From contig DAIDIF010000263.1 in NCBI GenBank assembly GCA_027451805.1, forward strand, positions 1 through 62,804: DNA of 62,804 nt, in the 5' to 3' direction. The DNA comes from Acidobacteriota bacterium. Its GTDB lineage: Bacteria; Acidobacteriota; Terriglobia; Terriglobales; SCQP01. Shown piece after piece: positions 35,067 through 39,024 of the stretch. How positions within the stretch are numbered: the stretch's first letter is position 1; each line of letters starts with the position of its first letter. Both the position numbers and the translations under genes were made by a program. The notes beneath the pieces are model-generated. The model was not told the DNA's origin. It did not search any database and was given only the letters and a program-made list of their open reading frames with translations.

Positions 35067-35428
35067 TGGTGGAGGCGGTGGGAGTTGAACCCACGTCCGA
35101 AGGTGCTGCCGATGAGGAGAACTACGGGCGTAGTCCGTTCAGGCCTTGCTAGCGTTTCACGGTCAGAGCGGACAAGAACCGCCAAACGCCATCCCCTACC
35201 TCGTGAGAGGCTCTCGCCAATAACGCCGGAGCTTGCGCTACTGACCAGCCTGCAAGAATGACGTCCGCACCGGGCCTACAGGCGAACCCGGGAGAACGAC
35301 GCAACTAATTAAGCTGCGTATGCCAGTTGGTTAGAATTGGCACTTGTGGTTTTCCATGCGATTACGGGGGCATGGTACCCGGCACGCCTCCCCATCTCAT
35401 CCACCCCCGTCGAAACCGGGACGCCCCC
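35067..35428 (-). ncRNA. ssrA: tmRNA (transfer-messenger RNA), tag peptide ANSNQLAYAA
   Basis: 5' end GGGGGCGTCCCGGTTTCGACGGG, 3' end GGACGTGGGTTCAACTCCCACCGCCTCCACCA. Tag frame 35341-35309 reads gcc aat tct aac caa ctg gca tac gca gct taa. Confidence 0.96.
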
Positions 35429-38553: not shown

Positions 38554-38583
38554 TTGCAAAAGGGGGGGCGGTGGTGGTGAACT
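38554..38583 (+). promoter_or_regulatory. Putative sigma70 promoter for the extended-SD small RNA/ORF unit
   Basis: TTGCAA (38554-38559), 18-nt spacer, TGAACT (38578-38583) preceded by TG at 38575-76. The -10 box is imperfect. Confidence 0.45.
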
Positions 38584-38611
38584 GGAAGCACGCAGGAAAG
38601 GAGGTGGTCCA

Positions 38612-38671
38612 GTGGATTCATCCGGCAGTAGACAGAACAGAACTTGGACTTGCGAGGTGGCTGAGGCCTAG
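38612..38671 (+). CDS. Candidate 19-aa small ORF MDSSGSRQNRTWTCEVAEA behind an extended 16S-complementary SD
   Basis: AGGAGGT core (38599-38605), 6-nt spacer, GTG 38612 and TAG 38669-38671. Not in the supplied ORF track. Confidence 0.55.
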   Translation: MDSSGSRQNRTWTCEVAEA

Positions 38672-38754
38672 GCGTTCAGGCCAGCCTGAGAGGCGTCCTG
38701 GACGCCCCAGCCAATTCCATCAGTCCACCGCTTCGAGCCTTGCCGCTCGAGGGG

Positions 38755-38788
38755 AAAGCGGTCCCGGCTAAAGCCGGGACCGCTTTTT
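38755..38788 (+). terminator. Intrinsic terminator closing the small RNA/ORF unit
   Basis: aaagcggtcccggc-TAAA-gccgggaccgcttt (14-bp perfect stem), T5 at 38784-38788. Confidence 0.85.
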
Positions 38789-38949
38789 CGTCCCAGAAGA
38801 AATATTTCCGCCACCCGCGCAACACGCCCGGCACGAAGGGGTTGAATGGTCAACCCGTTAGCGCACCCAAGGGCCTGCAGGGATGGGAAACCGGAGCTGC
38901 AGGCCCTTTTCTCCATGACGGCAGCCATGCTACATTGGGAATCGCGCTT

Positions 38950-39024
38950 GCGGGAGTAACTCAGTGGTAGAGTGCGACCTTGCCAAGGTCGAAGTCGCGG
39001 GTTCGAATCCCGTCTCCCGCTCCA
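38950..39024 (+). tRNA. tRNA-Gly (GCC)
   Basis: GCGGGAG acceptor stem, D arm ACTC/GAGT, anticodon arm CGACC-TTGCCAA-GGTCG, TTCGAAT T-loop and encoded CCA. 75 nt, with TGcTACATT upstream at 38928-38936. Confidence 0.98.

Follow-up and report, generated by a model that had tools for sequence, protein, structure and literature searches.

The locus at 38554-38793 raises the question of what kind of gene would place a complement to the whole single-stranded 3' tail of 16S rRNA in front of an ORF of only 19 codons. The window (the whole stretch of DNA that was analysed, 62,804 nt) belongs to a 305-contig MAG of Acidobacteriota (3.16 Mb, 70% G+C, mine drainage). We consider, with a probability of about 0.78, that the locus is a stand-alone small mRNA, possibly a dual-function sRNA, that can be assigned to the Ms_IGR-5 family and has the architecture of the rre genes from alpha-proteobacteria. 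This reading draws on the sequence anatomy, the homology, the conserved 16S complement, the conserved frame, and the covarying helix that were identified in this work.

Setting and predicted transcript of the locus

The element is located 50 nt past the stop codon of slt, whose product has an SLT transglycosylase domain, and 350 nt ahead of a tRNA-Gly(GCC) gene (38950-39024). The coordinates that had been given for the promoter, the Shine-Dalgarno sequence (SD), and the ORF were recovered when the sequence was re-read. The predicted sigma-70 promoter (38554-38583, + strand) consists of the -35 box TTGCAA (38554-38559) and the -10 box TGAACT (38578-38583), which are separated by an 18-nt spacer. 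The TG of an extended -10 (38575-76) is inside the spacer, ahead of TGAACT. The alignment exhibits TTGCAA or TTGACA as the -35 box and TGnTnnnnT as the -10 box at equal spacing in 16 relatives. The predicted transcript (38590-38793, + strand, about 204 nt) starts 7 nt past the -10 box, which is where the match to the Rfam family RF02471 begins. It ends with an intrinsic terminator (38752-38793, + strand) that has a 17-bp stem (38752-38768/38773-38789), a UAAA loop, and U5. The relatives have an equivalent GC-rich hairpin and U run in the alignment. The fold also exhibits the hairpin CUUCGAGC/GCUCGAGG (38731-38752, + strand), the sequence of which is not conserved in relatives. A simple promoter and terminator scan of the locus called neither of them. 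The search for the transcript in three metatranscriptomes of the source study and one soil run gave signal only for tRNA-Gly, and this signal came from other organisms.

The location of the element may suggest that it has no function of its own, either as an SD-like run that arose by chance in the 3' UTR of slt or as part of a tRNA-Gly leader. The distances to both genes would agree with this, and so would the linkage that is kept in the family of the window (loci L001-L018), where the distance from the element to a tRNA-Gly(GCC) gene downstream on the same strand is always 330-630 nt, and where tRNA-Cys sometimes comes next. However, no such linkage was found elsewhere in Acidobacteriota or in Actinomycetota when the neighbourhoods of the homologues were checked, and these homologues have no nearby tRNA. 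The promoter boxes and the terminator of the element are also conserved, and a single-copy element that is conserved in two phyla is set against 0.01 occurrence expected per window. This explanation is close to refuted.

A second conserved block is located between the terminator and tRNA-Gly (38836-38905). It consists of GGGGTTGAATGGTCAACCC-GTTAGCGCACCCAAGGG, followed by a GC hairpin and a T run, and relatives within the genus, as well as at least one further genus, retain it. The Rfam E-value scan gave no match for this block, which could be the promoter or leader of tRNA-Gly, or another small RNA. The window also has an ordinary tmRNA gene (35067-35428, - strand, tag ANSNQLAYAA, 161 bits).

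The complement to the 16S rRNA tail and the small ORF

The extended SD GGAAAGGAGGUGGUCCAG (DNA GGAAAGGAGGTGGTCCAG; 38595-38612, + strand) complements the last 18 nt of 16S rRNA with two G.U pairs. If counted from 38596, the pairing of GAAAGGAGGTGGTCCAG (38596-38612) with the tail spans 17 nt and includes one G.U pair, which bears out the sequence-only reading. That reading had assumed the conserved 16S tail. The 16S gene is absent from the MAG (the genome was searched), and the genes of relatives were used as the reference. The eight 16S genes that were taken from genomes of this family and order all end with ...GCGGCTGGATCACCTCCTTTCTAA (tail in relatives ...GGCUGGAUCACCUCCUUUCU), in agreement with the assumed tail. 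The predicted duplex has -32 kcal/mol, where ordinary SDs have -9 to -13. Even at two mismatches, the window has a single occurrence of the 17-mer, against 0.01 expected, and AAGGAGGTGRTCC occurs once in the whole genome. [quoted passage not shown]

The bases at each position of the complement were counted in an alignment of 91 homologues (A1). Among the five bases upstream of GGAGG, those opposite a U of 16S rRNA are A or G (G45/A42, A62/G29, A78/G13, and A76/G15), and the one opposite C is G in 90 of the 91 homologues. Downstream, position +7 is G in 86 and A in 4 homologues (partner U), positions +8 to +10 are nearly invariant as TCC, and position +11 is A in 41 and G in 43 (partner U). The substitutions that are tolerated in the complement are only those that keep Watson-Crick or G.U pairing with the tail. 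As judged from this alignment, the complement is evidently under position-specific selection across two phyla, in a pattern that would make sense only for pairing with the 16S tail. In both phyla, most homologues have a contiguous complement of 15-22 nt.

The sORF (38612-38671, + strand; MDSSGSRQNRTWTCEVAEA) has a GTG start and 19 codons that are followed by TAG. It is intact in 89 of the 91 homologues, which start with TTG (39), GTG (23), ATG (18), or CTG (9) and stop with TAG (78), TGA (6), or TAA (5). The length of the ORF is 12-19 codons among homologues, the indels are multiples of three, and the distance from GAG to the stop is five codons without exception (E-V-A-x-x-stop). The peptide of the window ends with WTCEVAEA before the stop, which fits the E-V-[AT]-x-x-stop end expected of Ms_IGR-5. 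The variation of codons 4-6 in Terriglobales, TCN-GGY-AGY (S-G-S), is confined to third positions. The in-frame interchange of starts and stops and this third-position variation argue firmly, at the level of sequence comparison, that the ORF is not incidental. The peptide has no NCBIfam match, and the string WTCEVA was not found in the literature search.

The complement runs into GUG only in Terriglobales and some other Acidobacteriota, whereas the start in Actinobacteria is outside the complement, 5-7 nt past GGUCC. One subclade of Actinomycetota (L162-L173) has CTG directly past GGUCCA(A/G) as the sole in-frame start candidate. The peptide of this subclade is (L/M)HKP..TREV[AT]AR with synonymous variation, and the complement of some members to 16S rRNA covers up to 22 nt with wobbles allowed.

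The perfect SD core, the conserved in-frame sORF, and the element's own promoter and terminator would also be expected of an ordinary micropeptide gene in which the long SD serves solely for very high translation. However, the complement is conserved beyond the needs of initiation. It extends to the last nucleotide of 16S rRNA (terminal U) and the base of helix 45, and in some Acidobacteriota it extends to GAUCCAGCC. Most members also have GUG or UUG as the start. An ordinary micropeptide gene is regarded as highly improbable.

The Ms_IGR-5 family and the covarying long-range helix

The Rfam scan of the window at gathering thresholds returned tmRNA and tRNA only. The E-value scan returned a full-length match to RF02471 (Ms_IGR-5) with 37.1 bits (E 3e-7 to 8e-7), below the cut-off of 45 bits, which is a curation threshold tuned on Actinobacteria. 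One copy of RF02471 was matched in 16 of 41 relatives, with 47 bits in one genome of the same family (G018), above the cut-off, and 24-42 bits in the others. Our own model R1, for which sequences of both phyla were used, gives the window 86.6 bits and covers 38589-38733.

The window has the parts that mark Ms_IGR-5, which was first seen in Mycobacterium smegmatis. The 5' motif ACRC-N2-GRAAGGAGGUGRUCC (GRAAGGAGGUGGUCC in the form common to both) is present at the transcript start. The sORF ends with [WR]-T-x-E-V-[AT]-x-x-stop, and the Ms_IGR-5 consensus retains UGGACAUGUGAGGUGGCUG, which is WTCEVA in frame. After the AAUYCC box comes the CAGYCACC box, the pairing partner of GGUGRCUG (38713-38729 in the window). 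The covarying long-range helix, the terminal hairpin, and the single-copy status are also alike. The differences are that the sORF of Terriglobales has 16-19 codons instead of 12, that their GUG is inside the 16S complement, and that the 3' box of the window has a 1-nt bulge.

The locus is an acidobacterial member of Ms_IGR-5, a family that has been catalogued in Actinobacteria. It is real and conserved, and it is not new in kind, because it is a member of this family and has the same design as rreB. The sequence-only reading had counted on the absence of an already characterised Rfam family or gene, and it fails on this point in view of Ms_IGR-5 (RF02471), CC2171 (RF01867), and rreB/rreR. Acidobacteriota as an additional phylum for Ms_IGR-5 is new here.

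The SD and WTxEVA-box pattern was identified at no fewer than 120 loci in the species-level genome collection (at least 120; nearly all from Actinomycetota and the rest from Terriglobales MAGs). Five actinobacterial genomes with the pattern have one copy of RF02471 each (65-168 bits). In even samples, RF02471 was matched in 57 of 201 Actinomycetota, with one copy per genome in 56 of the 57 and two copies in G066. R1 was matched in 54 of 301 Acidobacteriota (34 of 186 genera, many families), always as a single copy. A contig labelled as an uncultured Gammaproteobacteria MAG (L069) has a mycobacterial-type Ms_IGR-5 of 165 bits and is probably mis-binned or mislabelled.

Ms_IGR-5 has ribosome footprints in mycobacteria (PMC4974804), and it is a mapped and validated transcript in Streptomyces. 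CC2171 is a Caulobacter sRNA that has been validated by Northern blot in Methylorubrum. RF01867 is likewise matched over its full length in the E-value scan of the window, with 25.3 bits, far from its cut-off of 75 bits, and only the 5' motif and the terminator are alike in that match. The consensus of CC2171 opens with GAAAGGAGGUGAUCCAGUG, and it resembles the window in a long-range helix from the ORF region to the 3' part and in its terminator. The RF02471 and RF01867 consensus sequences both open with GAAAGGAGGUG(A/G)UCC. The match to BjrC68 (25 bits) cannot be interpreted, and no link from it to rreB emerged from the literature search. BSnc120 and other weak Rfam matches align to the terminator hairpin only.

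The fold of the predicted transcript has an MFE of -96.7 kcal/mol (z = -4.0 compared to shuffles). A second SD-like box GGUGGCUGA (38656-38664, + strand) in the E-V-A codons of the sORF would form a long-range helix with UCAGUCCACC (38720-38729, + strand; U38724 bulged), which is an anti-SD look-alike (cf. 16S GAUCACC). In the homologues, the E-V-A codons (GGUGRCUGN) pair with a 3' box (NCAGYCACC) just past the AAUYCC box. The long-range helix has 87% of its cells paired on A1, compared with 30-41% if the partner is slid. Compensatory changes are exhibited at three pairs (UA/CG/GC, GC/AU/CG, and CG/AU/UA/GC) in several lineages. The double-change cells number 28, against 9.7+-3.7 in shuffled alignments, and none of 500 shuffles equals the observed number. 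Other Acidobacteriota have the compensatory variants GGUGCCUG with CAGG(U/C)CACC and GGUGACUG with CAG(A/U)UCACC. These alignments argue strongly that the long-range helix, which was found in this analysis, covaries.

If the long-range helix is enforced in the window, it costs 0.1 kcal/mol compared to the MFE. In the MFE of the window, the 3' box pairs with the first SD instead, but this pairing does not covary and leaves the last two pairs unpaired, and it is not the conserved fold. The comparative data favour the long-range helix (38656-38664/38720-38729) over two local stop-codon hairpins. The helix surrounds a variable hairpin domain with the stop codon (38665-38712, + strand; 30-110 nt in homologues, from alignments and a constrained fold). 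Of the three hairpins and the terminator that had been read from the sequence alone, the hairpin at 38731-38752 and the terminator stand, and the two hairpins over and after the stop are only one possible local fold. The unpaired AAUUCC box (38713-38718, + strand) is conserved as AAUYCC in both phyla.

The 3' part of the extended SD forms the 5' strand of a small hairpin, P1. GGUCCA (38606-38611, + strand) pairs with UGGACU (38645-38650, + strand), which belongs to the Trp-Thr codons. P1 (GUCCR with YGGAC) has 87% of its cells paired, and its closing pair is G.U in 35, A-U in 34, and G-C in 5 homologues. P1 is weaker than the long-range helix because the variation of its closing pair is one-sided only and it is missing in some Acidobacteriota. 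One acidobacterial clade has GGGAAAGGAGG-A-UGAUCCAGCC, where a 1-nt bulge is followed by pairing up to GGCUGGAUC. Loci L191-L193, L196-L198, and L203 (Acidobacteriota, same order, family f2) read GGGAAAGGAGG-A-TGATCCAGCC-TATG. These loci lack the P1 partner GGAC, and their complement to GGCUGGAUC enters helix 45 on its 3' strand. A clade with a bulged complement and without the P1 partner implies that the internal hairpin is not the sole reason for keeping the complement's 3' part.

The most conserved 'codons' (UGGAC and GAGGUGRCUG) are strands of P1 and the long-range helix, and the conservation of the C-terminal residues that overlap these helices may reflect RNA constraints. This would suit a purely non-coding RNA that binds 30S subunits as a decoy or sponge, as an anti-SD protector in dormancy, or as an aid in the maturation of the 16S 3' end, with the ORF as a by-product. 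The N-terminal residues that vary freely in Actinobacteria, the two of 91 homologues without a start codon, the nine with CTG only, and the reach of the complement to the last 16S nucleotide point in the same direction. However, TTG, GTG, and ATG starts and all three stops interchange at fixed in-frame positions with indels in multiples of three, the TCN-GGY-AGY codons of Terriglobales change at third positions only, and Ms_IGR-5 has the ribosome footprints mentioned above (PMC4974804). A purely non-coding RNA is unlikely, and a small mRNA remains the preferred reading.

Likeness to the rre genes and a proposed mechanism

The rreB gene of Bradyrhizobium produces a 165-nt small mRNA with a 17-nt SD that includes the G of GTG and a 14-codon ORF (Hahn et al., 2017, RNA Biol, PMC5711450). 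The rreB RNA co-sediments with 30S subunits and is weakly translated, where the SD extension and GTG each reduce translation (PMC5711450). It is more stable without its start codon, which indicates start-codon-dependent decay, and its overexpression has no growth effect, so that a simple 30S sponge is disfavoured for rreB (PMC5711450). The rreR gene and other rre genes have been reported only in alpha-proteobacteria, and Hahn et al. (2017) do not mention Rfam, CC2171, Actinobacteria, or Acidobacteria (PMC5711450). The literature search found no later paper that joins the rre genes with Rfam families, Actinobacteria, or Acidobacteria.

The rre genes are characterised by a complement of at least 16 nt to the 16S 3' end, which has 17-18 nt in the window when compared to the tails of the same family. 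The complement of rre genes ends on the first base of GTG and precedes an sORF of fewer than 30 codons, as it does in the window (G38612 and 19 codons). Like rreB and rreR, the window has a 17-nt 16S complement that ends on the G of GTG, an sORF (14-18 codons in rreB/rreR) that is conserved within its own clade, and a small stand-alone transcript, which is predicted in the window from a promoter and a terminator that are conserved in relatives. In both, a hairpin takes up all of the SD but its 5' part, which is unpaired. The rreB gene also adjoins tRNA-Gly in Bradyrhizobium, but this linkage was discarded as a common trait, being restricted to the family of the window and probably coincidental. 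The rre peptides are unrelated to that of the window, and the likeness that is claimed here is one of design.

The measurements of 30S binding, weak translation, and start-codon-dependent decay belong to rreB only and would apply to the RNA of the window by analogy. The sequence-only reading had proposed a dedicated ribosome-binding small transcript, which is the right kind of reading in that the complement is conserved in two phyla and rreB binds 30S subunits. Its alternative of a very strongly translated micropeptide appears contradicted if rreB is a guide, as both the extension and GTG lower translation there, and the same observation weighs against the ordinary micropeptide gene (PMC5711450). 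By the same analogy, its simple 30S sponge is disfavoured. The absence of a growth phenotype and the start-codon-dependent decay of rreB also weigh against a purely non-coding RNA (PMC5711450).

We propose that transcription from the sigma-70-type promoter would yield an RNA of about 204 nt that has a 5-nt leader, followed by 17-18 nt that could pair with the whole single-stranded 16S 3' tail. The A/G-rich 5' part of this pairing site is probably accessible and may act as the seed. Zippering would then open the small P1 hairpin, which is predicted to pair the 3' part (GUCCA) with the Trp-Thr codons. The 30S subunit would be held tightly but would initiate poorly, because the duplex ends on the G of GUG, a weak start. 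This step may not hold for the whole family, because the actinobacterial start lies 5-7 nt past the complement. The 19-codon ORF would be translated at a low level. The terminating ribosome would have to melt the long-range helix, because the last five codons (E-V-A-x-x) lie in the helix with the 3' anti-SD-like box.

A broader reading is speculative, and we would bet against it as it stands. Ms_IGR-5, the acidobacterial elements, and possibly rre/CC2171 could form one ancient single-copy class of ribosome-sensing RNAs with the 16S 3' tail as the ligand. The full-tail complement, the internal SD-like box in the last five codons, and the anti-SD look-alike would be the three boxes of a switch. 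The long-range helix might be remodelled once a free 30S subunit has been captured and the tiny ORF has then been translated, and the fate of the RNA or another output might report the free-subunit or initiation capacity. Neither the shared ancestry with rre/CC2171 nor the long-range switch was found in the literature search.

The small mRNAs with an extended SD are among the few natural RNAs for which contact with the whole anti-SD tail is predicted. Ms_IGR-5, labelled an 'sRNA' in Actinobacteria, is a small mRNA designed like rreB and a single-copy gene common to Actinobacteria and Acidobacteriota. With its complement under selection, it turns a lineage curiosity into a widespread element, which is now approachable in tractable hosts (M. 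smegmatis or Streptomyces, for example). A concrete structure to mutate is the covarying helix that the last codons form with the anti-SD look-alike. Rfam labels RF02471 as an Actinobacteria sRNA, and its consensus structure has neither the long-range helix nor the sORF. There is a case for annotating the locus in Acidobacteriota and for extending RF02471 by the sORF and the long-range helix.

Other alpha-proteobacterial loci with an extended SD were identified by plasmid BLAST. Sinorhizobium and Shinella have GAAAGGAAGGTGATCCAATG before ORFs of 23-24 codons. These loci score 34 and 27 bits with RF01867 and only 13 bits with R1. Their SD is hidden by an internal CCUUCCUUU box, whereas the family of the window has the long-range helix. 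The small ORFs of S. meliloti (L212; CP090106.1, 1061122) and Shinella (L213) have the variant SD GGAAGG and an internal 3' box CCUUCCUU(U) that is the exact complement of their own variant SD, which suggests that SD sequestration may co-evolve with the SD. The extended-SD loci of Rhizobiaceae and Azospirillum have the SD in common with the window, and little else is demonstrable. The likeness of these alpha-proteobacterial loci to the family of the window that is claimed here is again one of design. The 20-nt matches on Bacillus plasmids were rejected as chance or ordinary SDs. Azospirillum sp. B510 has an extended SD CAGAAAGGAGGTGATCCAATG of 18-20 nt (L211; pAB510d, 339777-339799) before a 59-codon ORF that lacks annotation and has a stretch of hydrophobic residues near its N-terminus, and it is identical in four Azospirillum plasmids.
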